64,000 bases of DNA from a virus. The notes under the pieces are model-generated. The model did no database searches. It was not told the DNA's origin and was given only the letters and a program-made list of their open reading frames with translations. The DNA lies in the IMG/VR virus record IMGVR_UViG_3300025732_000019; one strand, given 5' to 3'. A program made the translations under genes and the position numbers. The stretch's first letter is position 1. Every line of letters begins with the position of its first letter. Below are positions 1-61,316 of the stretch, one piece after another.

Positions 1-3000
1 CGGCTGCTTCGCGACCTTTTGATCGGTGCCGATCACGGTACCGCCCAGTTCACCGGTATACACCGTGTAGGCGTCTGAGTCAGAACGAACAACTATTGCG
101 TATTCTAAGCCCGGTTGCAAATGTACCGGCGCCGCAAAGGCAAAGCGTGTGTAGGTGTTCGCGTCACTAAAGTTAGGTGCAGTCGTCGTATTCACACGAT
201 CTTGACGCATCGATACGGTGGCTTGACCGCTATCCGAAAGACACGGCACCAACTGATTCGAACTTGGATATCCATTTACAACAGGGCGCAATTCAACGAT
301 GACCGGAATGTCGTCTGTCGGCTTCGTCGCGAACGCGAGATCCAGTGAACTCACCATCACGCCTTGCGGATACTGCCGCGCATCGACAAGGAACGTCTGC
401 GCCAGCGGATCGACCCATTCAACCGTCGTATTTTCGACGCGTGTGCGATCCACTTGTGTGCGAGAATCGGTGACACCACTGCGATTGATGCCCACGCTGC
501 GCGTGCTCACACTGAAGTTTTGTTCTGTGACGTTCAACCCTGACGCGGTATAGTTTGTTTCGGCCGTTGTGGTGGCATCCGACACAACATCGCTCGCGCT
601 ATCCGTGAGGCGGAAGAGACGTGTGCCGGCAGCAAATGTGCCATCCTGCAGGTGAAACGCACCCGACACCGTACCCGCACGCGATGCCGTAACGGTGGCA
701 TTTGCAAGGAAGCTCTCGGATGTCATATTGCCAATACTGTAGATGGTTGAACCCACCGTAATATTCGAGAGCCCTGCGGTGACGAGTGTTGCCGATTTGG
801 TGGACACGTTGTAGCTCGCAGTATTGATTGTTGCGAACTGCCCCGCGCCCGGCCCAGACACAAAGTAGATGCGTGGATTGCCACTCACCGTATCTGTCGT
901 CATATCCGATTCGAAGCGAATGATGTGTGTGCCGTCATTGTACGCACGCACGACGCCAGACGCAACAATCGCGGTATTCACATTAAGTGTAAATGAACTA
1001 CCGCGTGCGCTGCTTGGCACGATGAGAGTTGAACCGCTGCCGCTGCTATTTGCCAGCGCGCCAGCACGTACCGGATAGGGTGTCGCGGCATCATTATCCG
1101 CATCGCGCACCACACGCACGACACTAATGGTATATTCAATGGTGTCACCGGTAACGCGAGAAGCGACATCCGAAATCGTGACCGGTGTCAGCGTCGAGAG
1201 TGTTGCACCTGCTAACGTGGCGGGTGCTGTTGAGAGCAACGTCGCACTGGTGTTGTTCGCGCTTGACGAGATGTACCGATCAAATGTGGTACCGCTCAGT
1301 TCAACACGCACCAACTGATTAGGCAGGAGTTGCTCGTCAAAGGCGGTGCTTGTTCCGGTGATAGTGGAGCACGCGGTCGTCGTGGAAATTGTGCCCGACA
1401 GCGGAGTCTTGACGTACACAGTCTGGCCCACAAAGAAGGCCCGTTCTGTCGTCGTGGGCACCAACCGCAACTTGTTGGCGCGCTGCACGTAATTCTTGAC
1501 ATCTACGCCATCAAAGAACGGATAGAGTGTTGCACTGGGGCGCAATCCGTCTGCGGCAAACACGATGTCGCGATTGCGCATATGATGCACAATGCTCGTA
1601 TCCACCACAAGATTACCAAAGTTCGCTGTCGTGGTTTGTGATACGTAGTCGAATCGTGTGCCACTACGCTGTTGCGTTGAGGTCGTCTCTATGTCTTGCC
1701 ACGAAGTCGTGGTTTCCCGCATACTGCGCCAATCGTGCGCATTCGGTGTCCAATTTTCAGGCACCCACCAATCCTGTCGCGAACCTCCACTTACGCTAGT
1801 ACCCGACCATGTGGTGTCCCATTCGCCCCAGTTTGTGTATGACGGCAGATTCGCATCCACCCACGCTTGTGTGGGGCCGCCCATATCGATTACCTGTGCG
1901 GGTCGCGTCGTGGTTGACTTCCACGTATCGACTGCGGGTGAGAGACGTACCTTTCCGTAGAACGAACCGATATTGAACGGATTGACCGATATCGCATGTG
2001 TCGCTAACGGCTGCGTCACAAATGCGCTCTGCGAATAGGCGGGAATCGCCATGTCACCAACGACAGACACGCCAAAGGTATTGCTGTTGGCGCTATCCAC
2101 CGCAAACTGGAAGTTGGTGCTGCGGAACCCCGGATTCAGTGTATGCGCATACGTATCAATCGATGCCGTAAAATCCGGATCGATCACATTGGCCACACCC
2201 GTACCGACGAACCCATCGACAAGAATGCCATTCTTATATCGTTCAAGATTATCCTGATCGGTAATCGACTGGTCGCGGGCATTGCGTTCGAGTTGCGACA
2301 GCGATGTGTAGTATTCCAAGTGTGCCACGCGGTCTTCCATGCGTGATAGATCTTTCATGGTGTACCGCTTATGATCGTACGTGCGGAGCTTCACGTCAAT
2401 AGGCACATTGTTCGCGTCTGCTAAGGTGTAGGGTGGCACTGTGACTTGATAGAACAGCAACCCCTGATTGTCATCCGACGGCGGAACCGGCGACTGATTG
2501 GCTTGTCCTTCAATCACATGAAATGCGCCATCAGGATACAGTGCGATCTTATCGATACGAGCAAGATAGAACTGATAGCTGCCGTTCCACACATCATCCG
2601 AGACGGGCGTCAAATACGACGCGCCACTGGTGGTATCCACAAACTGCGTGTTGCTGGTGCTATCCGATGCCGCATACACCAGTGCACTGCTTTGGAAGTT
2701 GTAGTTCGAGCGCGTGGGGCGGAAATCGAGCACTTCGCGCAAGTTGATCTTGCGGTTGAAGCGCGGAGACATGTAATCGGGAATGGTATCGTAGGATAGA
2801 CCCAATGCGATATTGTTGCTCGTCAGATAGCTATCGACCGTCGCATATCCGATACCATTATGCTGGAACCAATCGAAGATCATCAGCAAACGACCGGTCG
2901 GCTTGATCACGGATGCCGCTCCGTTGTTCACAATCGCTCGACCATATTCGTAGCTGTTATCGCGCTGGCCGGAATCCAATGTGAAATATTCCGTCACATC

Positions 3001-5439
3001 CGTGGCGGTCGAGAGATCACCATTTGCGAACGCGGTGTTGCTACTCTTATACAACACCTTGCGTAAGTTCATCACATCCGGTGTCTTCAGTGAGTATGCG
3101 AACCCGGCAGTGGCATTCAGTGTGTGAAACTCGATCTGCCCCTTCGACAATGCTGACGTGGTGTTCGAATACACTGCAGACGTGTTGCCCACGTAGTAGA
3201 CTTTTTCACGCGCCGGGTATCCGGTGACTAACGCCTTTCCGAGTGCGCTAAAGGTACGCGTATTGCTGGTTGACGAACCGTGATGATACGTGAACGACAG
3301 CACATACTGGCCACCCACAGACGCGACACTCGCATTGGACAGACACCGCACAGAAGAATTCACGTTTGCAGCATCTGCCCACTGAATGACTTGACCGTAA
3401 CCCTTATTGTCTGTCGTCAGATCGAATACAGTGAAGTATTCCTGTGCACTGGCAGCACTCAACGTTCCAACGGGCACGCTGAATGTGTTACCCGCAAAGA
3501 CAACGGACAGAGCACCGTTCGACGCACTGCTAAACGTACGTGTGTTCGATGCGGATTGCAGCCATGTGCTAAACTCCGCAGTAGCAATACCAATCGTGTT
3601 GGCCTTGACGAATCGTTCGGGGATTTGGTATAGCAGTGAGCTATCGTTGACCCCTTCCACATACGTATATCCTGCGGGAGTGCCGTCGAGCTTACTATCC
3701 GGCGCCACATCGGCTTGGAAGACCAGATTCGACGCATAGGGTGCGGCAGTATTTGCAGAACCAAACAATGCAAACGCATCCACATCGCGTGTCTGAAACT
3801 TCAACGAGTACGTGGTGTTGGCGTTTGGCAACGCAGGCAAGAACTCACGTAGAGTGACGTATGCGTGCGTCGCATTTCCCACCACATAGTTGTTCACGGT
3901 AAACGTGCCACTGACGGGTGAGTCGGCACCACCAAGCGTGATGGTTGCTCCTTCAATTGCACCATCTTTTTCCGGTCGCCCATTTCCAATCGTGACTGTC
4001 AGCGTAAACGCAACGTTGTTATTGACGGCGGCCGCCACCACATTACTCGACAAGCTCGCAAACTGCACGTCGCTGAAAAACAGTCGATACACGCTATTGT
4101 TCGCATACGTATCGATCTGCAACTGCGACGGCACCCGATGCGTTTCGATCATGCGCACCTTTGCGGTACCGATCTTGCTATACGCATACGTGCCGCTGGT
4201 CGCTACGTTGATCGATGCCGCGTTCGTGCAGTGAATATCAACCGTGGTCGTGTTCGCAAAGTAACTGTTGGGGGCCGCAGCCGACACACGGTTCGCGTAG
4301 ACGTAACTGCCTACCGACAATGCGAGAGTGCGGTTGTCTGCATTCGCGGTTTCTCGGCCTTTGCGGATGATCGTGTTGACTGTCTGTGTTGTTTCGATTT
4401 CGTAGCCCTGCACGTATGCTTTGCCGGCACCGATAGACAGGTAGAACGTATTCGCGTCACTTGGGTTTTCGTCAATCACGGGTACGAACGGGCGCACGAC
4501 ATAGTTGCCCGATTCATCGTACGTGCGACGAGCGAGAATATCATTCAGTTCTTCGGAGCGCACATATCGCTGTGAGGTGCGGGTGTATTGGATCTGGCCA
4601 TCCACGACACGGCACAGTTCAATGAAGTTCGCATCCGCATCTGTATCCAGTGTGCGTTTTGCTAACGTCAGACGCATGCGGAAACGATGCGCGCCAACGG
4701 CGCCATTGTTCGCGGGATCAAGCAGCGTCTCACCGACTACCGCATCCAACTCGTCGAGAATGTCTTCAGCGATCTCCAAGCCCACACGGTATGAGGGGGT
4801 GCTGCTCAACGCATCCAGTACAATCGTTTGGGGCTTCACATGCACATAGAAGCCAGAGACGAACACCACACCTTCATCGATGCTGGCCGTCGATGCGGCC
4901 GAGAACACTTCACTGTTGGTGCCCGTGGAGAAAGTCGCTTGCTTGGTAGCATCGGTAGCAAGCTGCACCGTGCCGGATGGCAAAAACGCTCCTGCACCAG
5001 CATACTTGAAGACAAGATAGTTATTGCTGGTTTCGCCATCGTCAACACTGACGTATTGCACGACGGTCGCTTTTGTCGTGTTGGCGCTGGTATCGAAAAT
5101 ATTGGTGGGCGTATTCGTATCGCGGTCGTAGAAATTCGTCAGCGTTGTGGCAGGCAGCACCTGACCACTGGTCGCTTGCACATCCACAGCAATTTGTGCA
5201 CCATACACACGGTCGCCATCACGGAACTGTGCGGTACCGAGTCGCTGCAATTGCGCTTGCAGCAGTGTCTGTACCTGTGTCAGTTCGCGAGACTGCACGC
5301 CATAGCGAGGGCGGAAGAGAATGCGATGAAAATCAAACTCTTCACCGCGTAACTCACCCGTAGTGGTATTCGCTATGGTGTAGTAGTCGTCGTAATATTC
5401 AGACCGTAGAATGTTTTGTGTGGTATTACTAATCGCCAT
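1..5439 (-). CDS. Large virion structural protein, DUF4815/VrlC-like (3' end beyond window; absent from ORF track)
   Basis: Minus-strand frame from ATG at 5439 reads MAISNTTQNILRSEYYDDYY...FHRILFRPRYGVQSRELTQVQTLLQAQLQRLG, matching the YYDDF..ILFRP...QARELT.LQ N-terminus of T4-like DUF4815 proteins; lies directly downstream of gp8. Openness of the full frame was spot-checked only. Confidence 0.8.
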   Translation of the reverse strand, partial: MAISNTTQNILRSEYYDDYYTIANTTTGELRGEEFDFHRILFRPRYGVQSRELTQVQTLLQAQLQRLGTAQFRDGDRVYGAQIAVDVQATSGQVLPATTLTNFYDRDTNTPTNIFDTSANTTKATVVQYVSVDDGETSNNYLVFKYAGAGAFLPSGTVQLATDATKQATFSTGTNSEVFSAASTASIDEGVVFVSGFYVHVKPQTIVLDALSSTPSYRVGLEIAEDILDELDAVVGETLLDPANNGAVGAHRFRMRLTLAKRTLDTDADANFIELCRVVDGQIQYTRTSQRYVRSEELNDILARRTYDESGNYVVRPFVPVIDENPSDANTFYLSIGAGKAYVQGYEIETTQTVNTIIRKGRETANADNRTLALSVGSYVYANRVSAAAPNSYFANTTTVDIHCTNAASINVATSGTYAYSKIGTAKVRMIETHRVPSQLQIDTYANNSVYRLFFSDVQFASLSSNVVAAAVNNNVAFTLTVTIGNGRPEKDGAIEGATITLGGADSPVSGTFTVNNYVVGNATHAYVTLREFLPALPNANTTYSLKFQTRDVDAFALFGSANTAAPYASNLVFQADVAPDSKLDGTPAGYTYVEGVNDSSLLYQIPERFVKANTIGIATAEFSTWLQSASNTRTFSSASNGALSVVFAGNTFSVPVGTLSAASAQEYFTVFDLTTDNKGYGQVIQWADAANVNSSVRCLSNASVASVGGQYVLSFTYHHGSSTSNTRTFSALGKALVTGYPAREKVYYVGNTSAVYSNTTSALSKGQIEFHTLNATAGFAYSLKTPDVMNLRKVLYKSSNTAFANGDLSTATDVTEYFTLDSGQRDNSYEYGRAIVNNGAASVIKPTGRLLMIFDWFQHNGIGYATVDSYLTSNNIALGLSYDTIPDYMSPRFNRKINLREVLDFRPTRSNYNFQSSALVYAASDSTSNTQFVDTTSGASYLTPVSDDVWNGSYQFYLARIDKIALYPDGAFHVIEGQANQSPVPPSDDNQGLLFYQVTVPPYTLADANNVPIDVKLRTYDHKRYTMKDLSRMEDRVAHLEYYTSLSQLERNARDQSITDQDNLERYKNGILVDGFVGTGVANVIDPDFTASIDTYAHTLNPGFRSTNFQFAVDSANSNTFGVSVVGDMAIPAYSQSAFVTQPLATHAISVNPFNIGSFYGKVRLSPAVDTWKSTTTRPAQVIDMGGPTQAWVDANLPSYTNWGEWDTTWSGTSVSGGSRQDWWVPENWTPNAHDWRSMRETTTSWQDIETTSTQQRSGTRFDYVSQTTTANFGNLVVDTSIVHHMRNRDIVFAADGLRPSATLYPFFDGVDVKNYVQRANKLRLVPTTTERAFFVGQTVYVKTPLSGTISTTTACSTITGTSTAFDEQLLPNQLVRVELSGTTFDRYISSSANNTSATLLSTAPATLAGATLSTLTPVTISDVASRVTGDTIEYTISVVRVVRDADNDAATPYPVRAGALANSSGSGSTLIVPSSARGSSFTLNVNTAIVASGVVRAYNDGTHIIRFESDMTTDTVSGNPRIYFVSGPGAGQFATINTASYNVSTKSATLVTAGLSNITVGSTIYSIGNMTSESFLANATVTASRAGTVSGAFHLQDGTFAAGTRLFRLTDSASDVVSDATTTAETNYTASGLNVTEQNFSVSTRSVGINRSGVTDSRTQVDRTRVENTTVEWVDPLAQTFLVDARQYPQGVMVSSLDLAFATKPTDDIPVIVELRPVVNGYPSSNQLVPCLSDSGQATVSMRQDRVNTTTAPNFSDANTYTRFAFAAPVHLQPGLEYAIVVRSDSDAYTVYTGELGGTVIGTDQKVAKQP

Positions 5440-5470
5440 TGATGCGCTCGTTTAGAGAGAATGCTGTTTA

Positions 5471-6814
5471 CTAGCCGAACTGGAACACAAGCTTGATTTC
5501 TTCGACTTGATCCGGGCCTCGCGTCACCGGAGAACGCTGATCGACATACAGAATGTTCCCGGTAAAGAACTTCAGTTCCGGCAGCGACACGGTACTGATG
5601 ACACCCTCCACACCCGACACATTGCAGGTGATGGTATCGCCGCTCACAAACGCATTCGCACGACCTTGATCATTGACCGCCGTCACGCGCACGACATTAT
5701 TGTTTCCCGACGCCACGACATCAACCACAATACCCGTGACAACATACGATACGTTTGATGACACATGAATCACATCATCGGGAGCAAACACGCCGGTGTT
5801 GGATGTCAGCGTAAGATCGAACGTCTGCTTATAGAAGTTGCCGTTTGCGGCACTGCCATTCGCAAGCAGTGGATCCGTCAGCAATAGAATACGACGATAG
5901 TTATTGATTGTCGTCAACTCATCATCTTCATCGTATTCGAACTGGCCTGTCAACATGATTGCTGAACCGCCAAGTTCCTTTTGAGCATTATACCCGTGAT
6001 TGGGATACGGAGGAATGATTGCTCGCGCCGTAGCATTGACTGCACCTGCTTGCTGCACGATCACCGTATTGACTGTCGTATATCCAATACCACCATTCGC
6101 AGGAAGAATCTGGGTAACTGCGTTTGACGTGATCGTGAGACTCGATGCATTGACGACGGCACCGTTACCGTCACCCGTAAAGGCAACAGTGAACGACCCC
6201 GCAGGATTGAATCCGGATCCATTTGAGGTCATAATGAACGGCACTGTCGTGGGTAACTTTCCCGGTACCGCGGCCGCAGCGGCGGACACGGTACCATTCG
6301 TAGACACCGGCATCCATGAGTTCGTCAAGAACTTGTACTTGTCAGTTGAGATGTCGTACATGTACTGCCACACGTATCCGTCTGCGGTCGCAACAGGAGA
6401 CACGTTATTGCCAGTCGTGCTCGGTGCAACGGTGCTGTTTCCGCCGTTGTTGTTCCATAAGCACTTGTACACCTTAAACGGCGCATCCGTTGTGTCCAGC
6501 ACATAGAAGTTATTGCTAAACAATGATGTGCTGGTGTCATCATACTGCGCGTAGACGGTATTGCTCGACCAATCGCGGCGTGGAATCACGTATGAAGTGT
6601 TCGCCACATCCACGCGCTTGACGGCAAGCATATCGCGCCAGTATTCGAAATCGACACTCTGCGTGTCTTGTGTCGGTGTTGGCGGGCTGTTATCGTTCGT
6701 CCAATCTTGAGGACGACCCACACCAAGATAGAACATCGAGGTGTTCGAACTCAAGCAATTTGCGAATTGCTGCGACAGAAAGGTACGATACTTTTTTGTA
6801 TTGATACTTGACAT
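5471..6814 (-). CDS. gp8: Baseplate wedge subunit gp8-like
   Basis: FYLGVGRPQDW, IPRRDW, VYKCLWNN, ADGYVWQYMY, C-terminal QVEEIKLVFQF; synteny gp6-gp7-gp8. Confidence 0.9.
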   Translation of the reverse strand: MSSINTKKYRTFLSQQFANCLSSNTSMFYLGVGRPQDWTNDNSPPTPTQDTQSVDFEYWRDMLAVKRVDVANTSYVIPRRDWSSNTVYAQYDDTSTSLFSNNFYVLDTTDAPFKVYKCLWNNNGGNSTVAPSTTGNNVSPVATADGYVWQYMYDISTDKYKFLTNSWMPVSTNGTVSAAAAAVPGKLPTTVPFIMTSNGSGFNPAGSFTVAFTGDGNGAVVNASSLTITSNAVTQILPANGGIGYTTVNTVIVQQAGAVNATARAIIPPYPNHGYNAQKELGGSAIMLTGQFEYDEDDELTTINNYRRILLLTDPLLANGSAANGNFYKQTFDLTLTSNTGVFAPDDVIHVSSNVSYVVTGIVVDVVASGNNNVVRVTAVNDQGRANAFVSGDTITCNVSGVEGVISTVSLPELKFFTGNILYVDQRSPVTRGPDQVEEIKLVFQFG

Positions 6815-30377: not shown

Positions 30378-30453
30378 GAGCTTGTAGCTCAATTGGCAGA
30401 GCAGCAGCCTCTTAAGCTGTTGGTTGAAGGTTCGACTCCTTCCGGGCTCACCA
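30378..30453 (+). tRNA. tRNA-Lys(CTT)
   Basis: Cloverleaf, loop CT-CTT-AA, CCA. Confidence 0.92.
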
Positions 30454-30487
30454 CGTTTTTTGACAACTGCATATCATCCGAAAATGG

Positions 30488-30564
30488 CGCGGGAATGGAG
30501 CAACGGTGGCTCATCAGCCTCATAACCTGAAAATCGGTGGGTTCAATTCCCACTCCCGCAACCA
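30488..30564 (+). tRNA. tRNA-fMet(CAT), initiator-like
   Basis: C1:A72 mismatch, loop CT-CAT-AA, CCA; anticodon stem lacks three G-C pairs. Confidence 0.8.
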
Positions 30565-30565
30565 T

Positions 30566-30639
30566 CCGCATGTCGCTCAATGGCAGAGCAGCACGTTTAC
30601 ACCGTGCCTATGGGAGTTCGATTCTCTCCGTGCGGACCA
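30566..30639 (+). tRNA. tRNA-Val(TAC)
   Basis: GCACG-TT-TAC-AC-CGTGC, CCA. Confidence 0.9.
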
Positions 30640-30644
30640 GTTGT

Positions 30645-30728
30645 ACCGATGTGGCGGAAAGGCATACGCGCTAGTCTGAGATACTAGTGGGGCAACCCAT
30701 AAGAGTTCGACTCTCTTCATCGGTACCA
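30645..30728 (+). tRNA. tRNA-Leu(GAG)
   Basis: CTAGT-CT-GAG-AT-ACTAG, variable arm, CCA. Confidence 0.9.
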
Positions 30729-30733
30729 GATAG

Positions 30734-30819
30734 GCCCGATTGGCGTAATTGGCAGCCGCGCTTGCCTTAGAAGCAAGTGTCTTATTGACGTGTAGGTTCG
30801 ACTCCTACATCGGGCACCA
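30734..30819 (+). tRNA. tRNA-Leu(TAG)
   Basis: CTTGC-CT-TAG-AA-GCAAG, variable arm, CCA. Confidence 0.9.
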
Positions 30820-30828
30820 GATTGTCAT

Positions 30829-30918
30829 GGAGAGTTGGCTGAGTGGCCGAAAGCAGCAGGTTGCTAACCTGTCGTGGTGTCACAACCACCACTGGTTCGA
30901 ATCCAGTACTCTCCGCCA
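30829..30918 (+). tRNA. tRNA-Ser(GCT)
   Basis: GCAGG-TT-GCT-AA-CCTGT, long variable arm, G73, CCA. Confidence 0.92.
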
Positions 30919-30921
30919 GTT

Positions 30922-30998
30922 GGGGTTGTAGTTTAGTTGGTGAGAACACTCGCCTGTCACGCGAGAGGTCGCGGGTTCGATCCCCGTCAACCCCGCCA
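30922..30998 (+). tRNA. tRNA-Asp(GTC)
   Basis: CTCGC-CT-GTC-AC-GCGAG, CCA. Confidence 0.92.
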
Positions 30999-31003
30999 AA
31001 TAT

Positions 31004-31077
31004 TGGGATGTAGTGTAATGGGAGCACCGGAGTCTCTGAAGCTCTTTGTCTAGGTTCGAATCCTAGCATCCCAGCCA
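31004..31077 (+). tRNA. tRNA-Gln(CTG)
   Basis: Loop CT-CTG-AA, U1-A72, CCA. Confidence 0.88.
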
Positions 31078-31085
31078 GATTTCAT

Positions 31086-31159
31086 TACCATGTCGTCCAA
31101 TGGCAGGACAACGGACTTTGAATCCGTGAATGGTGGTTCGAGTCCACCCGTGGTAGCCA
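31086..31159 (+). tRNA. tRNA-Gln(TTG)
   Basis: ACGGA-CT-TTG-AA-TCCGT, CCA. Confidence 0.9.
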
Positions 31160-31165
31160 CGTTTT

Positions 31166-31250
31166 GCCGGGTTCGCATAGTGGCGATTGCACCGCTCTTG
31201 TAAGGCGGCGAGGAAACTCCACGTCGGTTCGAGTCCGACACCCGGCTCCA
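31166..31250 (+). tRNA. tRNA-Thr(TGT) with long variable arm
   Basis: CCGCT-CT-TGT-AA-GGCGG, extra arm GAG-GAAA-CTC, CCA. Confidence 0.8.
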
Positions 31251-31254
31251 GTAT

Positions 31255-31330
31255 GCCATCGTAGCTCAATTGGGAGAGCAAGACTTTCGTAAAGTCGAGG
31301 TTGGAGGTTCAAGCCCTCTCGATGGCTCCA
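31255..31330 (+). tRNA. tRNA-Thr(CGT)
   Basis: GACT-TT-CGT-AA-AGTC, CCA. Confidence 0.85.
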
Positions 31331-31333
31331 TCT

Positions 31334-31410
31334 CGGAACGTAGCTCAGTTGGTTAGAGCAATCGCTTGATAAGCGATAGGTCGCTGGTTCGACTCCAGCC
31401 GTTCCGACCA
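31334..31410 (+). tRNA. tRNA-Ile(GAT)
   Basis: ATCGC-TT-GAT-AA-GCGAT, CCA. Confidence 0.92.
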
Positions 31411-31417
31411 CACATGT

Positions 31418-31491
31418 GGGTCAGAAGTGTTATGGTAGCACAGTGGCCTCCAAAACCGCGAGCGTAGGTTCGACTCCTACCTGATCCGCCA
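31418..31491 (+). tRNA. tRNA-Trp(CCA)
   Basis: Loop CT-CCA-AA, G73, CCA. Confidence 0.85.
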
Positions 31492-31516
31492 ATTTATTGC
31501 GAGTTATTTAATTTAC

Positions 31517-31591
31517 GGCGGTATCTTCTAATGGTTAGGAAAGTGCTCTTTCAAGGCAACAATCGGGGTTCGATTCCCCGTACCGCTACCA
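31517..31591 (+). tRNA. tRNA-Glu(TTC)
   Basis: Loop CT-TTC-AA, CCA. Confidence 0.85.
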
Positions 31592-31604
31592 GTATTTTGA
31601 TTAT

Positions 31605-31679
31605 GCCGCTTAGGCTTAGACAGCGAAGCACGACATTGGTAATGTCGAGAGCAGGGCGCACGTCCCTGAAGCGGCTCCA
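31605..31679 (+). tRNA. tRNA-Thr(GGT), atypical T-loop
   Basis: CGACA-TT-GGT-AA-TGTCG; T-loop CGCACGT instead of TTCRANY; CCA. Confidence 0.7.
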
Positions 31680-31683
31680 TTTC

Positions 31684-31759
31684 GGGCCCGTAGCTCAGTT
31701 GGGAGAGCGCCGCCTTTGCAAGGCGGATGTCGCAGGTTCGATCCCTGTCGGGTCCACCA
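31684..31759 (+). tRNA. tRNA-Ala(TGC)
   Basis: G3:U70, CCGCC-TT-TGC-AA-GGCGG, CCA. Confidence 0.93.
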
Positions 31760-31764
31760 GTTTC

Positions 31765-31850
31765 GGCGCGTTCGCATAGCGGCAATTGCATCTGGCTGTA
31801 AACCAGACGACCCACGGTCTACGGTAGTTCGAGTCTACCACGCGCCACCA
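31765..31850 (+). tRNA. tRNA-Tyr(GTA)
   Basis: TCTGG-CT-GTA-AA-CCAGA, variable arm, CCA. Confidence 0.9.
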
Positions 31851-31852
31851 TC

Positions 31853-31932
31853 TTTACCGACCGATACGTGTAGAGTATATCCACACGCAGTAAGTCCATC
31901 AAGGGTCGCAACCTTGGGCAACGGTCGGTAAA
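31853..31932 (+). ncRNA. Unidentified three-way-junction RNA inside tRNA array
   Basis: 11-bp closing stem TTTACCGACCG/CGGTCGGTAAA, inner stems CGTGT/ACACG and CAAGG/CCTTG. Confidence 0.65.
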
Positions 31933-31941
31933 TCTTTTTGT

Positions 31942-32016
31942 TGGGATGTAGCTCAATGGCAGAGCGTTCGGCTGTTAACCGAATGGTTGTAGGTTCGAGT
32001 CCTACCGTCCCAGCCA
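31942..32016 (+). tRNA. tRNA-Asn(GTT)
   Basis: TTCGG-CT-GTT-AA-CCGAA, CCA. Confidence 0.93.
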
Positions 32017-32026
32017 TCTCTAAAAC

Positions 32027-32100
32027 GCGGCATTGGTGTAGTGGAAGCATGGAACCTTGCCAAGGTTCAGGTATCGGATCGTTACCGATATGCCGCTCCA
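32027..32100 (+). tRNA. tRNA-Gly(GCC)
   Basis: GAACC-TT-GCC-AA-GGTTC, T-loop ATCGTTA, CCA. Confidence 0.8.
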
Positions 32101-32101
32101 C

Positions 32102-32172
32102 GCGGGTATGGTATATCGGTTGTGCCTCGGCCTTCCAAGCCGAAGAAGTCGGTTCGACCCCGACTACCCGCT
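32102..32172 (+). tRNA. tRNA-Gly(TCC), no encoded CCA
   Basis: TCGGC-CT-TCC-AA-GCCGA. Confidence 0.85.
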
Positions 32173-32188
32173 TACCCAATCCATTTTT

Positions 32189-32263
32189 GTGCCGTTGGCT
32201 GATTGACGAGGCGAACGCCTGCAAAGCGTTTTCAAGATGGTTTGATTCCATCACGGCACTCCA
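32189..32263 (+). tRNA. tRNA-Cys(GCA)
   Basis: AACGC-CT-GCA-AA-GCGTT, U73, CCA. Confidence 0.85.
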
Positions 32264-32268
32264 TCTAT

Positions 32269-32344
32269 GGTGGTATAACTCGATTGGAACAGAGGGCAGA
32301 CTGTGACTCTGCTGAAGCGGGTTCGATTCCCGTATACCACCCCA
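32269..32344 (+). tRNA. tRNA-His(GTG)
   Basis: G-1:C73, GCAGA-CT-GTG-AC-TCTGC, CCA. Confidence 0.88.
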
Positions 32345-32347
32345 TAT

Positions 32348-32424
32348 CGGAGAGTGGGCTAAAGGCTGGCCGCCTGCCTTGGGAGCAGGATATCAAGCGA
32401 GTTCGATTCTCGCCTCTCCGACCA
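32348..32424 (+). tRNA. tRNA-Pro(TGG)
   Basis: CCTGC-CT-TGG-GA-GCAGG, CCA. Confidence 0.88.
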
Positions 32425-32428
32425 TCTT

Positions 32429-32503
32429 GGGTCGTAAGCATTCGTGGTGATGCTCTAGACTTTTAATCTGGCGAACCGAGTTCGACTCTCGGACGACCCA
32501 CCA
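32429..32503 (+). tRNA. tRNA-Lys(TTT)
   Basis: CTAGA-CT-TTT-AA-TCTGG, CCA. Confidence 0.88.
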
Positions 32504-32531
32504 TTTATCTTTCGGATGATATGCAGTATAT

Positions 32532-32607
32532 GTCGGTGTGGTCTAACGGAGAAGGCACGGTGTTTCTACCACCGAAGATGTGGGTTCGACTCCTACCACC
32601 GACACCA
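32532..32607 (+). tRNA. tRNA-Arg(TCT)
   Basis: CGGTG-TT-TCT-AC-CACCG, CCA. Confidence 0.85.
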
Positions 32608-32611
32608 GTAT

Positions 32612-32686
32612 ACCAGTGAAGCCGATTGGCGAGGCGCGACGCCCATACCGTCGTTGTAGTGGGTTCGATTCCCTCCGCTGGTACCA
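32612..32686 (+). tRNA. tRNA-Met or Ile2 (CAT) with C33
   Basis: CGACG-CC-CAT-AC-CGTCG, CCA. Confidence 0.75.
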
Positions 32687-32687
32687 C

Positions 32688-32765
32688 GGGCACCGAGCGA
32701 GTCTGGTGATTCCGCGCCTGTCTGAAGAGCAGGAGAATGTGGTTCGATTCCACAGGTGCCCACCA
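32688..32765 (+). tRNA. tRNA-Phe(GAA)
   Basis: CCTGT-CT-GAA-GA-GCAGG, CCA. Confidence 0.85.
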
Positions 32766-32772
32766 CATGTAC

Positions 32773-32855
32773 ACCCGCGTGTCGTAATGGCAGCCGAGGT
32801 AGACTCAAAATCTACTGCTCGAAAGAGCGTACTGGTTCGATTCCAGTCGCGGGTA
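32773..32855 (+). tRNA. tRNA-Leu(CAA), no encoded CCA
   Basis: GTAGA-CT-CAA-AA-TCTAC, variable arm. Confidence 0.88.
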
Positions 32856-32868
32856 CTATCTAAGTACA

Positions 32869-33420
32869 ATGAGCGCAGATATGGAACAGACACTCTTACT
32901 CAACGCAACCTACGAACCAATGGACGTCGTGCACTGGCAACGAGCGATGACGTTATGGTGTCAGGGAAAAGTGGAAATCGTCGAAACACATGATCGCGAA
33001 GTGCATGCGGTGACGTTCTCCTTCAAACTACCGTCTGTGGTGCGACTCCTTCGGTGTGTGCGTTCCAAGCGGCGGCCTGAAGTACAGTTCACACGGGCGA
33101 ACATCTATGCCCGAGATAACTATACCTGTCAATACTGTCGTCAGACCTATGCCACGCACGAACTGACATTTGATCATGTGCTGCCAGTCTCCCGAGGCGG
33201 GAAACGTAGTTGGGATAATATCGTCACGTGTTGTCTTCCGTGCAATCGTTCCAAAGGTTCCAAGACGCCACACGAGGCGCAGATGGTGTTGCTGCGTAAA
33301 CCTGCGAAACCCGCGTATACACCGGTGTTTCGTATCACACTCGGTATGCGGAAGACGCCCGAGAACTGGCGCGACTATTTGTATTGGTCAACAGAACTTG
33401 TCAACGACAACGATGCATAA
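32869..33420 (+). CDS. HNH endonuclease
   Basis: LLLNATYEP, RDNYTCQYC, TFDHVLPVSRGG...WDNIVTCC..CN..KG. Confidence 0.93.
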   Translation: MSADMEQTLLLNATYEPMDVVHWQRAMTLWCQGKVEIVETHDREVHAVTFSFKLPSVVRLLRCVRSKRRPEVQFTRANIYARDNYTCQYCRQTYATHELTFDHVLPVSRGGKRSWDNIVTCCLPCNRSKGSKTPHEAQMVLLRKPAKPAYTPVFRITLGMRKTPENWRDYLYWSTELVNDNDA

Positions 33421-33521
33421 CAGGAGATCGTGACGGATGCTCTCTGAATTGGGTGACATTGCTATGGCGTGGTTTCGTTCAACCTTTTTTGTGGTATAAT
33501 ATGTCTCGTGTAACATTGTAT

Positions 33522-33608
33522 TGGCGTGTGTCCGGAATGGCATCGGCCCTGACTGTTAATCAGTGCGCCCGAAAGGGAATGTAGGTTCGAATCCTACCAC
33601 GCCAGCCA
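33522..33608 (+). tRNA. tRNA-Asn(GTT) with long variable arm
   Basis: CTGA-CT-GTT-AA-TCAG, extra arm CCC-GAAA-GGG, G73, CCA; own TGTGGTATAAT promoter at 33490-33500. Confidence 0.8.
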
Positions 33609-56376: not shown

Positions 56377-56603
56377 TGCAGTCATTTCGAGCACACGTCG
56401 CAGAAGTCTCGCGACTGAAGCGGTTCTCGGTTGATTACATCTATCAGACCGCGACGGGCGGCCCGCATCGTACGCAATTGATTTCGACGAACACGCAACT
56501 CCCGAACCTTGCCACCAGCGAGACAGCAGTTTTGGCATGGCTGCGAAAGCGGCATGTTGGGTGTGAGATTACGATCATTTCCCTTGATTGGCAGAGTCTC
56601 TAA
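56376..56603 (+). CDS. Small protein with capsid-targeting-like leader
   Basis: GTG start overlapping upstream stop; QSFRAHVAE. Confidence 0.45.
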   Translation: MQSFRAHVAEVSRLKRFSVDYIYQTATGGPHRTQLISTNTQLPNLATSETAVLAWLRKRHVGCEITIISLDWQSL

Positions 56604-56609
56604 CTCCGC

Positions 56610-56748
56610 TTGACATCCGCATGTATGTGCGGTATACTTGCTTTCGTTGTTGGTGATGCGTTTTGAAATTTCCATTGCATGCCAACGTTGGCAGACGTGG
56701 TACAGAAGCAAAAGAATGCTTGACACCGACTCTGCAATGTGAGATAAT
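56610..56748 (+). promoter_or_regulatory. Tandem sigma70 promoters
   Basis: TTGACA(56610)-17-TATACT and TTGACA(56720)-17-GATAAT. Confidence 0.75.
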
Positions 56749-56824
56749 AGTTCTCATGGTGATGAACGAAAACACTGGCGACGGTTATCACCCTTCAAAC
56801 TTCAGAGCCAGTCACAAAGGTAAA

Positions 56825-57151
56825 ATGAATATGTCGAACACGTCAATGACCGCTACGCAGAAGCTGCTTTCCTACCTCAAGACCGGTCGCGATATTACCG
56901 CTGCACAGGCGCAGAGCCGCTTCGGTATCTCGAACGTTTCTGCTCGGGTGTCGGAGCTTCGCAAGGCGGGTTATTCGGTGTACCTGAACGAGAAGGTCAC
57001 GTCGAACGGCAAGACGATCAAGGCGTACCGCCTCGGTACTCCGACGCGTCGTCAGGTGGCGATCGCGAACTTCGTCGAGAGCAACCCGAACTTCTTCGGC
57101 AAGGCGTCGTGGATCGGTGACCGCGCCGCGCGTCTGATGAAGACCGTGTAG
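56825..57151 (+). CDS. Winged helix-turn-helix DNA-binding protein
   Basis: KLLSYLKTG..IT...A..RFGI....ARVSELRKAGY.V....YRLG. Confidence 0.82.
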   Translation: MNMSNTSMTATQKLLSYLKTGRDITAAQAQSRFGISNVSARVSELRKAGYSVYLNEKVTSNGKTIKAYRLGTPTRRQVAIANFVESNPNFFGKASWIGDRAARLMKTV

Positions 57152-57156
57152 TCATG

Positions 57157-57187
57157 ACGAGGGGCTTCGGCCCCTCGTTTTGTCTTT
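57157..57187 (+). terminator. Intrinsic terminator
   Basis: ACGAGGGGC-TTCG-GCCCCTCGT then TTTGTCTTT. Confidence 0.85.
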
Positions 57188-57247
57188 GCATCTCTGACGA
57201 GCCCGCAAGGGCGAAACATGCTGTGCACACACCAGCATGTCAGATGC
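57188..57247 (+). ncRNA. Hammerhead ribozyme, type I
   Basis: Stem I GCATCT/AGATGC, core CTGACGA, stem II GCCC-GCAA-GGGC, GAAA, stem III CATGCTG/CAGCATG, GTC cleavage triplet ending at 57241. Confidence 0.9.
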
Positions 57248-57422
57248 TGTTCAAGGGGTGTCGTATCCTCTTGAAGTGATATCGCGTGTTGCATACGAAC
57301 CAACCGTGATACCATAAGCCTCAATGACAGGAACGTTGGTGGTGACAGGCGTCATTGAGTATATAGAAACCATCGACGCCGTGGATGCGAGTGCACTTGC
57401 GCCACGGCGTTATTATTTTTTC
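57242..57422 (+). ncRNA. Unidentified structured RNA (kissing loop + pseudoknot + terminal hairpin)
   Basis: Four consecutive hairpins with two independent loop complementarities; ends in a U-rich run. Confidence 0.6.
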
Positions 57423-57427
57423 TCCCT

Positions 57428-58273
57428 ATGACGACCGCACACGACTATCTCTCACTCATTGGTGATTGGCAGGATCCACTTCCCACACCACATCTCGAAG
57501 AACACGATGGTGTCTTGGTGGTGCGCGACGATCTGCTCGGCGCAGGCTCTAAAGTGCGCTTTCTCGATTATCTCATCGGGCACGATCCATCGAACACTGA
57601 TGTGCGTGAATGGGTTTTCGGCTCATGCCCTGCGACGGGCTACGCGCAGATCAGTCTCCCCGTTGTCTGCGAACGATACCAGAAAAAGGCCGTGCTCTTC
57701 ATGGCGCAACGGGATCCTTCGAAGTTTCATCCATACCAGCATCGCGGTCTTGCGCTCGGCGCCGATTATCGATGGGTGCCAAACGGTATGCTCAGTGTGA
57801 CGCAGAAACGTGCCCGTGATTATGCGAACGACGACCCGATGCATCGTCGTGTGCTCCCTCTTGGGTTGGAGCATCCCACGGTGATCGCCAGCATCATTCG
57901 TGTTGCTCGGAGTCTTCCTATTGTACCTGACGTGGTGTGGACGGTGGGCTCCAGCGGAACACTCTCGCGTGGTCTACAACTTGCATGGCCAGACGCAGAG
58001 GTGCATGTCGTGTCAGTCGGTCACACCATGACGGATCACGAACGCGGTCGAGCGATTCTCCACCGCTCTCCCTACAAGTTTGATAAACCGGTACGCCCGG
58101 AAGATGCACCTCCGTTTCCGAGTGCGCCGACATATGATGCGAAAGCATGGCGGATACTGCTCGATTGGCGACATACTCGCACACAGACACTGACGGTGCC
58201 ATCATCCGGACGTGAAGGCGCATTAAATATTCTCGCACATCAGAAAATTCTTCTCTGGAATGTAGGAGCGTAA
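57428..58273 (+). CDS. PLP-dependent fold-type II enzyme (ACC deaminase/cysteine desulfhydrase-like)
   Basis: VVRDDLL..GSKVR, VGSSGTL.RGLQ, PTYDAKAW, LWNVG. Confidence 0.8.
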   Translation: MTTAHDYLSLIGDWQDPLPTPHLEEHDGVLVVRDDLLGAGSKVRFLDYLIGHDPSNTDVREWVFGSCPATGYAQISLPVVCERYQKKAVLFMAQRDPSKFHPYQHRGLALGADYRWVPNGMLSVTQKRARDYANDDPMHRRVLPLGLEHPTVIASIIRVARSLPIVPDVVWTVGSSGTLSRGLQLAWPDAEVHVVSVGHTMTDHERGRAILHRSPYKFDKPVRPEDAPPFPSAPTYDAKAWRILLDWRHTRTQTLTVPSSGREGALNILAHQKILLWNVGA

Positions 58274-61223: not shown

Positions 61224-61316
61224 GCCCCTGTAGTGTAACGGTGAGCACCCGAGGCTTATACCCTCGCAGCCCTAGATGTGGGCGGAGTCTTGGTTCGAAT
61301 CCAAGCGGGGGTACCA
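61224..61316 (+). tRNA. tRNA-Ile(TAT) with long variable arm
   Basis: CGAGG-CT-TAT-AC-CCTCG, extra arm GCCC...GGGC, CCA. Confidence 0.8.

Follow-up and report, generated by a model that had tools for sequence, protein, structure and literature searches.

A putative ribozyme-headed, terminator-ended structured RNA in a clade of uncultured, distantly T4-like phages

Analysis of the 64-kb window of IMG/VR virus record IMGVR_UViG_3300025732_000019 (the window being the whole stretch of DNA that was analyzed) located a hammerhead ribozyme motif that is followed by a compact structured region and an intrinsic terminator. The element lies between a gene for a winged helix-turn-helix protein on its 5' side and a gene for a PLP-fold protein on its 3' side, and the features of the locus are listed in Table 1. 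The winged-helix gene is the conserved 5' neighbor of the RNA in seven of the eight versions found, and both promoters 5' of this gene probably supply the transcript entering the ribozyme. The gene is followed by terminator T1, and the gap of approximately 4 nt between T1 and the hammerhead leaves no room for a separate promoter. T1 looks efficient, and with no promoter located between it and the ribozyme, the RNA is predicted to depend on read-through for its synthesis. The hairpin equivalent to T1 in the related locus L001 is without the U-run, and the loci of group 2 (defined below) carry a hairpin at the corresponding place.

Table 1. Features of the ribozyme-RNA locus and its flanking genes; positions are counted from the first letter of the window.
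Feature	Position	Strand	Details
Promoter pair, sigma-70-type, near-consensus	56610-56638 and 56720-56748	+	Each 11/12 hexamer positions, 17-nt spacer
Winged helix-turn-helix gene, 106 aa	56831..57151	+	Pfam PF14090 HTH_39, E 3.8e-8
Terminator T1, 10-bp G+C-rich hairpin (57156-57179) and U-rich tail	57156..57187	+	Adjoins hammerhead stem I
Type I hammerhead ribozyme	57188..57247	+	Complete canonical core, three stems
Hammerhead stem I, 6 bp, open	57188-93/57242-47	+	
Hammerhead core CUGACGA	57194-57200	+	
Hammerhead stem II, 4 bp, GCAA loop	57201-12	+	
Hammerhead GAA	57213-15	+	
Hammerhead stem III, 8 bp, first pair A-U (A57216/U57240)	57216-40	+	
Hammerhead C17	57241	+	Predicted cleavage between 57241 and 57242
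Hairpin A, 9 bp, 8-nt loop (57259-66)	57250-58/57267-75	+	
Hairpin B, 7 bp, bulged U and 4 bp, 9-nt loop (57292-57300)	57280-86 and 57288-91/57301-04 and 57305-11	+	
Kissing-loop helix, 6 Watson-Crick pairs	Loop A 57261-66/loop B 57293-98	+	Exact complements
Hairpin C, 9 bp, loop of 22 nt (57329-50), its purine-rich 5' part conserved	57320-28/57351-59	+	
H-type pseudoknot, loop C 57335-43 with 57369-77	57335..57377	+	9 possible bp including two G-U
Terminator D, long interrupted hairpin (57375-57411) and U-run	57375..57421	+	Would form the RNA 3' end
PLP-fold (threonine-dehydratase-like) gene, 281 aa	57428..58273	+	PHROG 7093, E 6.5e-32; no Pfam match
Membrane-protein gene, 88 aa	58273..58539	+	52% identity over 87 aa to L163:3359-3622, E 4e-28

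The first-pass annotation had claimed a ribozyme-released RNA of ~180 nt, and the predicted ribozyme supports this claim. The window carries each element of the type I hammerhead core, namely, C3-U4-G5-A6-N7-G8-A9, G12-A13-A14, A15.1-U16.1, and a position 17 that is H and not G. A cut at C57241 would make position 57242 the start of the released RNA. The core is identical to that of the window in L001, L163, L268, and L167; stems II and III show compensatory changes between the window and L001, and the pairing of the three stems reaches 94-100% in group-2 loci, where double changes occur as well. When 56500-57700 was searched permissively against Rfam 15, the window hammerhead matched the permuted type III model only in part (21 bits, E 0.15). 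The hammerheads of two relatives scored 30.2 and 29.9 bits against RF00163 (E ~2e-4), for which the gathering score is 34 bits. The long stem III is probably the reason why the window copy stays below this score.

Downstream of the predicted cut, hairpins A, B, C, and D and the U-run are all present as they had been described on first reading. The exact complementarity of loops A and B and the 9-bp match, two G-U pairs included, between loop C and the segment before D were also reproduced. The folding energy of the 183-nt stretch was 3.7 sd below that of its own shuffles, and the 6-bp Watson-Crick match between the two loops of the window was reached in 1.4% of loop shuffles. The 3' strand of the pseudoknot shares 3 nt with the base of D in the window and ~1 nt in L001, and in group 2 the two are separated by a gap of 0-4 nt. 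A terminator hairpin and U-run equivalent to D follow the RNA in every version. In a search for a base-pairing target or a shared operator, loop C partly resembled a stretch between the two upstream promoters, a resemblance that does not recur in relatives, and 10-mers were shared within 3.5 kb no more often than by chance.

Comparison with Rfam 15 at gathering thresholds matched only tRNAs in the window and left the RNA body unmatched. With E values up to 10, the region 56500-57700 yielded only the partial hammerhead and chance-level terminator matches, and the bodies of six relatives had no match at E values up to 1. The initial remark that the RNA belongs to no recognized family is thus consistent with Rfam 15 at both gathering and permissive thresholds. 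A tRNA-like or tmRNA-like reading is unsupported, as Rfam gave no such match in 56500-57700 at E values up to 10 and ARAGORN gave none in seven related loci. A type III antitoxin (ToxI-like), or a mimic of one, is likewise unsupported, since 56900-57600 contains no tandem repeats and no toxin gene lies close by; the neighboring proteins matched no PADLOC model and no toxin family in Pfam or PHROGs.

Related loci were found by using homologs of the upstream winged-helix protein as a handle. Eight distinct versions of the RNA were obtained, one in the window and seven in related uncultured phages (L001, L163, L268, L167, L172, L177, and L178). The window and L001 constitute group 1; group 2 consists of L163/L165/L266, L268, L167, and L172; and L177 is more divergent. 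The sliding clamp shares ~34% identity with its counterparts in cyanophage and pelagiphage myoviruses, indicating a distantly T4-like clade. DNA similarity searches with the window region and one group-2 RNA against 50,697 GenBank phages returned no match, and a single cultured relative of the winged-helix protein was found, which is distant. Within IMG/VR, L001 was the sole contig with the RNA; further members were sought with two motif scans, with a hammerhead pattern, and by a profile scan across 80 winged-helix loci, and none was gained. A separate hammerhead-pattern scan of bacterial and archaeal genomes returned 38 loci, none of which was matched by R1, a covariance model of the 3' domain of the RNA. 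R1 also had no match in two hammerhead-linked sequences of L285, and RF00163 had none in E. coli O157 Sakai. RtcB, Band_7, and a further RNA designated RNA-Y are present in relatives and absent from the window.

The closest version, L001, is ~83% identical to the window over the aligned region and carries compensatory changes in hairpins A, B, and C. The stem of hairpin A is rebuilt with a different sequence in L001 and in all other versions, and hairpin B is kept in L001 with two compensatory pairs and one mismatch. The parts follow one another in group 2 as they do in the window, from the hammerhead through hairpins A and B and the large-looped hairpin C to the terminator. In group 2, an additional helix gives the B region the form of a three-way junction, which also includes another small hairpin. 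In the group-2 alignment, 94.7% of the cells of the nine helices were paired, compared with 27-49% when the partners were slid.

Between the window and L001, nucleotide identity was 75% for the RNA and 87% for the neighboring coding sequence, and the indels were not multiples of three. Since the RNA stretch drifts faster than the adjacent coding sequence while its pairing is kept, and since its indels do not respect codons, the stretch is non-coding, and the conserved object is a fold and not a protein. Identity of the RNA across lineages was 45-77%. The similarities of RNA and genes are discordant between L163 and L268, where the RNA is 94% and the coding sequence 84% identical.

Covariation in the 3' domain was assessed with R1, which models hairpin C only and treats the pseudoknot columns as plain sequence. 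Because these columns are left unpaired in R1, the pair counts of the pseudoknot are not fitted to the model. R1 recognized the window at 57316-57380 with 60.9 bits. In the R1-made alignment of the eight versions, 82.7% of the cells of hairpin C and the pseudoknot were paired and 13 of the 18 pairs had changed on both sides; none of 500 shuffles scored as high, and sliding the partners lowered pairing to 28-48%. An independent MAFFT alignment of seven versions gave nearly the same result, with 83.5% of cells paired, 13/18 pairs changed on both sides, 0/500 shuffles as high, and 29-48% pairing after sliding. Across the eight versions, nine of ten pairs in the hairpin C stem change on both sides. 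The pseudoknot helix is 84.7% paired, with four of its eight pairs changed on both sides: G-C/C-G, U-A/C-G, and G-C/A-U exchanges were observed, together with a fifth position occupied by G-U, C-G, U-A, or a U-U mismatch. A U-A and a G-C pair are invariant. The predicted pseudoknot is a 4-bp core with an extension of 2-5 bp of variable quality.

The 5' domain required a different treatment. MAFFT could not align the 5' domains of groups 1 and 2, and a covariance model built on that of group 2 missed the 5' domains of group 1, L177, and L178. The kissing loops were therefore compared across groups by a script working on loop coordinates taken from the folds, with boundaries set by hand, and on this basis loops A and B share a contiguous Watson-Crick run of 4-6 bp in 8/8 versions, in six different sequences. 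Runs of this kind arose in loop shuffles at frequencies of 0.0015-0.065 per version. When loops were exchanged between versions, the cognate pair was the highest or tied for the highest in every row and column of the resulting matrix. With the versions placed in register, three pairs of the helix are constant and two covary, one of the latter taking C-G, A-U, and U-A. The double change from A-U to U-A in L167 was also found by counting pair changes on the group-2 alignment. The first-pass annotation had named covariation in homologous regions as the check on both tertiary pairings, and with eight versions the outcome is positive. The predicted kissing helix and pseudoknot are both shown by covariation, within a set that derives from one clade of uncultured, distantly T4-like phages, such that several of the covarying pairs may trace to few evolutionary events.

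In L178, the RNA was recognized by R1 outside the seed of the model (L178:2766-2829; 42.8 bits, E ~1e-7), and the hammerhead is replaced by a pistol ribozyme (RF02679) at L178:2547-2607, which scored 43.8 bits against a gathering score of 34.5 (E 5.6e-5). This RNA, which sits after a different gene from the other versions, comprises hairpins A and B, whose loops can kiss over 5 bp in a further sequence of their own, and a three-way junction like that of group 2, followed by hairpin C, a 7-bp all-Watson-Crick pseudoknot, and a terminator. Seven of the phage lineages have a hammerhead ahead of the RNA, and one has a pistol. Because two unrelated self-cleaving classes occupy the same place, it is their shared product, a cut freeing a 5'-OH end shortly before hairpin A, that would matter, and not a peculiarity of the hammerhead.

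Variation was also observed within the hammerhead itself. The L172 hammerhead has a GGC cleavage triplet and that of L177 has a swap to U15.1-A16.1, and the RNA body is intact in both. Hammerheads with a non-canonical 15.1/16.1 pair are expected to be poor cleavers according to published mutagenesis. Given the L172 and L177 variants, precise release by the ribozyme may be non-essential. In L169, a close relative, T1, a D-like terminator, and the downstream promoter are kept, and the hammerhead and the A/B/C body are absent. Since L169 has both terminators without the ribozyme and the body, the unit behaves as an insertable cassette.

We propose that 57188-57421 of this uncultured T4-like phage encodes a stand-alone structured non-coding RNA that is matured by a ribozyme and ended by a terminator. 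From the sequence analysis, we assign a probability of approximately 60% to this reading. Transcription from the strong promoters of the winged-helix gene would read through T1, and the hammerhead, judging from its canonical core, would fold and cut after C57241. The upstream message would be left ending in a hairpin and the ribozyme with a 2',3'-cyclic phosphate, and the downstream RNA would be released with a 5'-hydroxyl as a stable species of ~180 nt, the 3' end of which would be set by terminator D. In this RNA, hairpins A and B would be locked by the kissing helix of 5-6 bp, and loop C would form the pseudoknot with the segment before D. The ribozyme would serve only to define the 5' end, since a pistol heads the same RNA in the relative L178. 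As for its task, our guess is that the RNA works in trans at an early stage of infection, its stable and specific shape making it a ligand or decoy for a protein or RNA of either the host or the phage. An accessory role, such as host takeover or counter-defense, would agree with its patchy occurrence in closely related phages. A bolder version, which we advance only tentatively, is that the RNA represents a new class of phage RNA whose 5'-OH end is cut by whichever ribozyme is at hand and which serves in trans as a decoy or effector against a host factor, in counter-defense or in RNA repair or turnover.

Hammerheads after the winged-helix gene also occur without the RNA body, in L176, where the core has a U3/A8 combination, and in L185, where GUAAC stands in place of GAAAC. 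The hammerhead may serve here as a general punctuation of transcripts, which the RNA exploits, rather than as a dedicated device. Taken further, these two loci and the interchangeability of hammerhead and pistol would suit a model in which the hammerhead is a generic cutter of the operon and the body insulates the resulting ends in cis, with no function in trans; bacterial ribozymes have indeed been suggested to process polycistronic transcripts (PMC6765202). We regard this model as unlikely, because a plain hairpin would suffice for end protection, whereas the kissing helix and the pseudoknot are kept despite sequence drift, suggesting a selected three-dimensional shape. Moreover, the body ends in its own terminator, which leaves no downstream message to protect.

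The stand-alone RNA proposed here must also be weighed against its downstream genes, which differ among the versions. The gene after the RNA encodes the PLP-fold protein in the window and L001, a small membrane protein in group 2 and L177 (six of the eight versions), and a deoxyribosyltransferase-like protein in L178. The membrane-protein gene of the window is the ortholog of the gene directly 3' of the RNA in group-2 loci, and as it directly follows the PLP-fold gene, the latter appears to be a lineage-specific insertion. The PLP-fold gene is common in environmental phages (188 IMG/VR and 310 metagenome loci), and L001 is the only one of these loci to carry the RNA; R1 had no match in 159 other PLP-fold loci, and none of the 80 scanned metagenome loci with a PLP-fold protein carried the RNA. 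The PLP-fold gene is a neighbor, and not a part, of the putative RNA system. In group-2 versions (five), an extended -10 promoter lies between the U-run of D and the start codon ~7 nt beyond it, so the downstream gene of group 2 is predicted to have its own, nearly leaderless transcript.

This arrangement makes it quite improbable that the RNA is a cis-acting leader or riboswitch, in which the A/B/C fold would sense a ligand or a protein and set read-through of D into the downstream gene. Such a leader would account for a pseudoknotted fold placed directly before an intrinsic terminator, with the 3-nt overlap with the base of D in the window, and for a downstream gene in the window that has neither a Shine-Dalgarno sequence nor a clear promoter of its own; but the downstream gene is not constant across the three different contexts, the many PLP-fold loci examined are without the RNA, and the promoter and near-leaderless start after D place the group-2 gene outside the RNA transcript by default. 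L169 has the same downstream gene and promoter without the RNA. No conserved anti-terminator pairing was seen, the sole candidate in the window being absent from L001, and the group-2 pseudoknot strand lies clear of D by 0-4 nt. The first-pass annotation had offered two alternatives, a stable processed phage RNA or a switch gating the PLP enzyme. The former is favored by the present analysis; the latter is not, given the 159 PLP-fold loci without the RNA, the other downstream genes with their own promoters, and a pseudoknot that is not consistently exclusive with D.

A stable trans-acting RNA is also preferred to a body that is itself catalytic or ligand-binding, that is, a new class of self-cleaving or ligating ribozyme or an orphan aptamer. 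Adjacency to known ribozymes was the criterion that revealed twister-sister, hatchet, and pistol (PMC5737381, PMC6765202), and the body has conserved unpaired stretches in loop C and the linker in addition to two tertiary pairings; in only eight related sequences, however, no invariant core is distinguishable from shared ancestry, and we consider this reading very unlikely. Although patchy presence among close relatives, the clean indel of L169, other RNAs in the same hotspot (RNA-Y), and the discordant similarities of L163 and L268 (94% vs. 84%) would agree with a selfish or relic cassette, in which ribozyme and body are a mobile insertion in an intergenic hotspot with no benefit for the phage, this is the least probable of the readings, as purifying selection on structure at 45-77% RNA identity suggests a maintained function, at least of the element.

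With regard to known systems, the predicted ribozyme resembles the RF00163 hammerheads of phages and prophages in its full core, three helices with compensatory changes, open stem I, and intergenic position in a phage genome. Unlike in these, the hammerhead accounts for only the first 60 nt, and the 130-nt body with its kissing loops and pseudoknot has no counterpart in the family. The pistol family RF02679 is related to the system through L178, where a pistol occupies the place of the hammerhead before the RNA body; there is none in the window, and the body shares with pistol only a topology, in which a hairpin loop pairs with a downstream segment; its sequence differs, and it gave no pistol match. 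Ribozymes set the ends of functional non-coding RNAs in the theta (HDV-like) ribozymes beside phage tRNAs and in the hammerhead-processed RNAs of retrozymes and viroids. The present system differs from these in that the cargo is neither a tRNA nor a circular replicon and in that a single ribozyme is combined with a terminator at the other end. Purine, preQ1, and SAM-II riboswitches likewise have kissing loops or an H-type pseudoknot beside a terminator, but here Rfam gives no riboswitch match, the downstream gene varies, and no alternative pairing with the terminator is conserved.

The RNAs drum, skipping-rope, DUF3800-I, and FuFi-1 have complex folds followed by Rho-independent terminators and are thought to perform a sophisticated task (PMC5737381). 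They show no consistent placement in 5' UTRs and their function is unknown (Weinberg et al. 2017, PMC5737381). The body is the same kind of RNA, an orphan fold ended by a terminator, but it has no match to these motifs in Rfam 15, and they are tied to particular protein genes. Drum and similar motifs are not described as headed by a ribozyme in the main text of PMC5737381, whereas the RNA reported here is. The predicted body constitutes a new family of RNA, of a general kind that is already known, that of orphan structured phage RNAs and ribozyme-processed transcripts.

In bacteria and phages, the role of genomically encoded hammerhead, pistol, and related ribozymes is still largely elusive, and glmS is the sole well-understood bacterial case (PMC6765202). 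One conserved RNA behind two ribozyme classes points to a single job, that of freeing the 5' end of a non-coding RNA from the upstream message. If this is true, the maturation of non-coding RNA ends would be the long-missing role of part of the phage hammerhead and pistol ribozymes. The proposed job is directly testable with a 300-nt construct. With two tertiary contacts mapped by covariation, the body lends itself to structure determination and to a search for partners, and L169 and L167 provide a natural pair for comparison without and with the cassette.

The intergenic hotspot 3' of the winged-helix gene also holds a second structured RNA, designated RNA-Y, in addition to the A/B/C RNA, the structured RNA of about 180 nt built on hairpins A, B and C. 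RNA-Y is closed by a stem of 7 bp with covariation in five pairs, carries two invariant 5-bp hairpins, one close to each end, and has a variable centre of 75–125 nt. Its layout, with the outer stem, a 5' arm and a 3' arm adjoining that stem, is loosely similar to that of a tRNA. No match was obtained by ARAGORN or in Rfam, and RNA-Y is an uncatalogued structured RNA. On contigs L181–184, it is followed by genes for Band_7 and RtcB (RNA ligase) proteins.

Different ribozymes were found at the head of the A/B/C RNA family. On contig L178, a pistol ribozyme occupies this position and overlaps the 3' end of a 130-aa gene. Relatives also carry natural changes in the hammerhead core: a GGC cleavage triplet (L172; present on at least 12 contigs), a swapped U15.1-A16.1 (L177), a double change to U3 and A8 at the two positions of the core that base-pair with each other in the active structure (L176), and replacement of GAAAC by GUAAC (L185). 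The close relative L169 lacks both the ribozyme and the RNA body and is a natural "minus" counterpart for comparison with L167, which carries the A/B/C RNA.

On L163, L167, L172 and L169, a TG-extended -10 element lies directly 3' of the terminator U-run, with the start codon ~7 nt beyond it; this spacing suggests that the mRNA of the small membrane-protein gene has no leader or almost none. Such expression may account for the missing Shine-Dalgarno sequence here.

Coordinates of the features in the window and on related contigs
Feature	Location	Strand	Remarks
RNA-Y	L163:2922-3079; L178:2002-2161; L181:1884-1992; L182:1885-2031		After winged-helix gene
Pistol ribozyme	L178:2547-2607		Score above Rfam gathering threshold
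Variant hammerheads	L172:2915-2960; L177:1624-1689; L176:2910-2983; L185 about 575-650		
Locus without the RNA	L169:2846-2990		T1 (terminator after winged-helix gene), second, D-like terminator (D, terminator at RNA 3' end) and downstream extended -10 promoter
TG-extended -10 element	L163:3336-3362; L167:3186-3212; L172:3160-3185; L169 about 2960-2990		
PLP-fold protein, 281 aa	window 57428-58273		PHROG 7093 "threonine dehydratase"
tRNA array, 26 genes	window 30378-33605	+	
Additional single tRNA gene	window 61224-61313	+	
Hammerhead-linked sequences	L285:1429-1530 and 5429-5535		Gammaproteobacterial MAG contig

For the PLP-fold protein, neither Pfam nor the sequences of solved structures gave a match, yet it is widespread in freshwater and marine phages (310 metagenome loci and 188 IMG/VR loci). 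Elsewhere in the window, the tRNA array and the extra tRNA gene fit a large T4-like phage.

L285 also carries a pair of canonical type I hammerheads separated by 4 kb. The hammerhead-linked sequences gave no match to R1, the covariance model of the 3' domain (hairpin C) of the A/B/C RNA. A similar sequence of ~50 nt lies 3' of either hammerhead and may represent another hammerhead-linked RNA.
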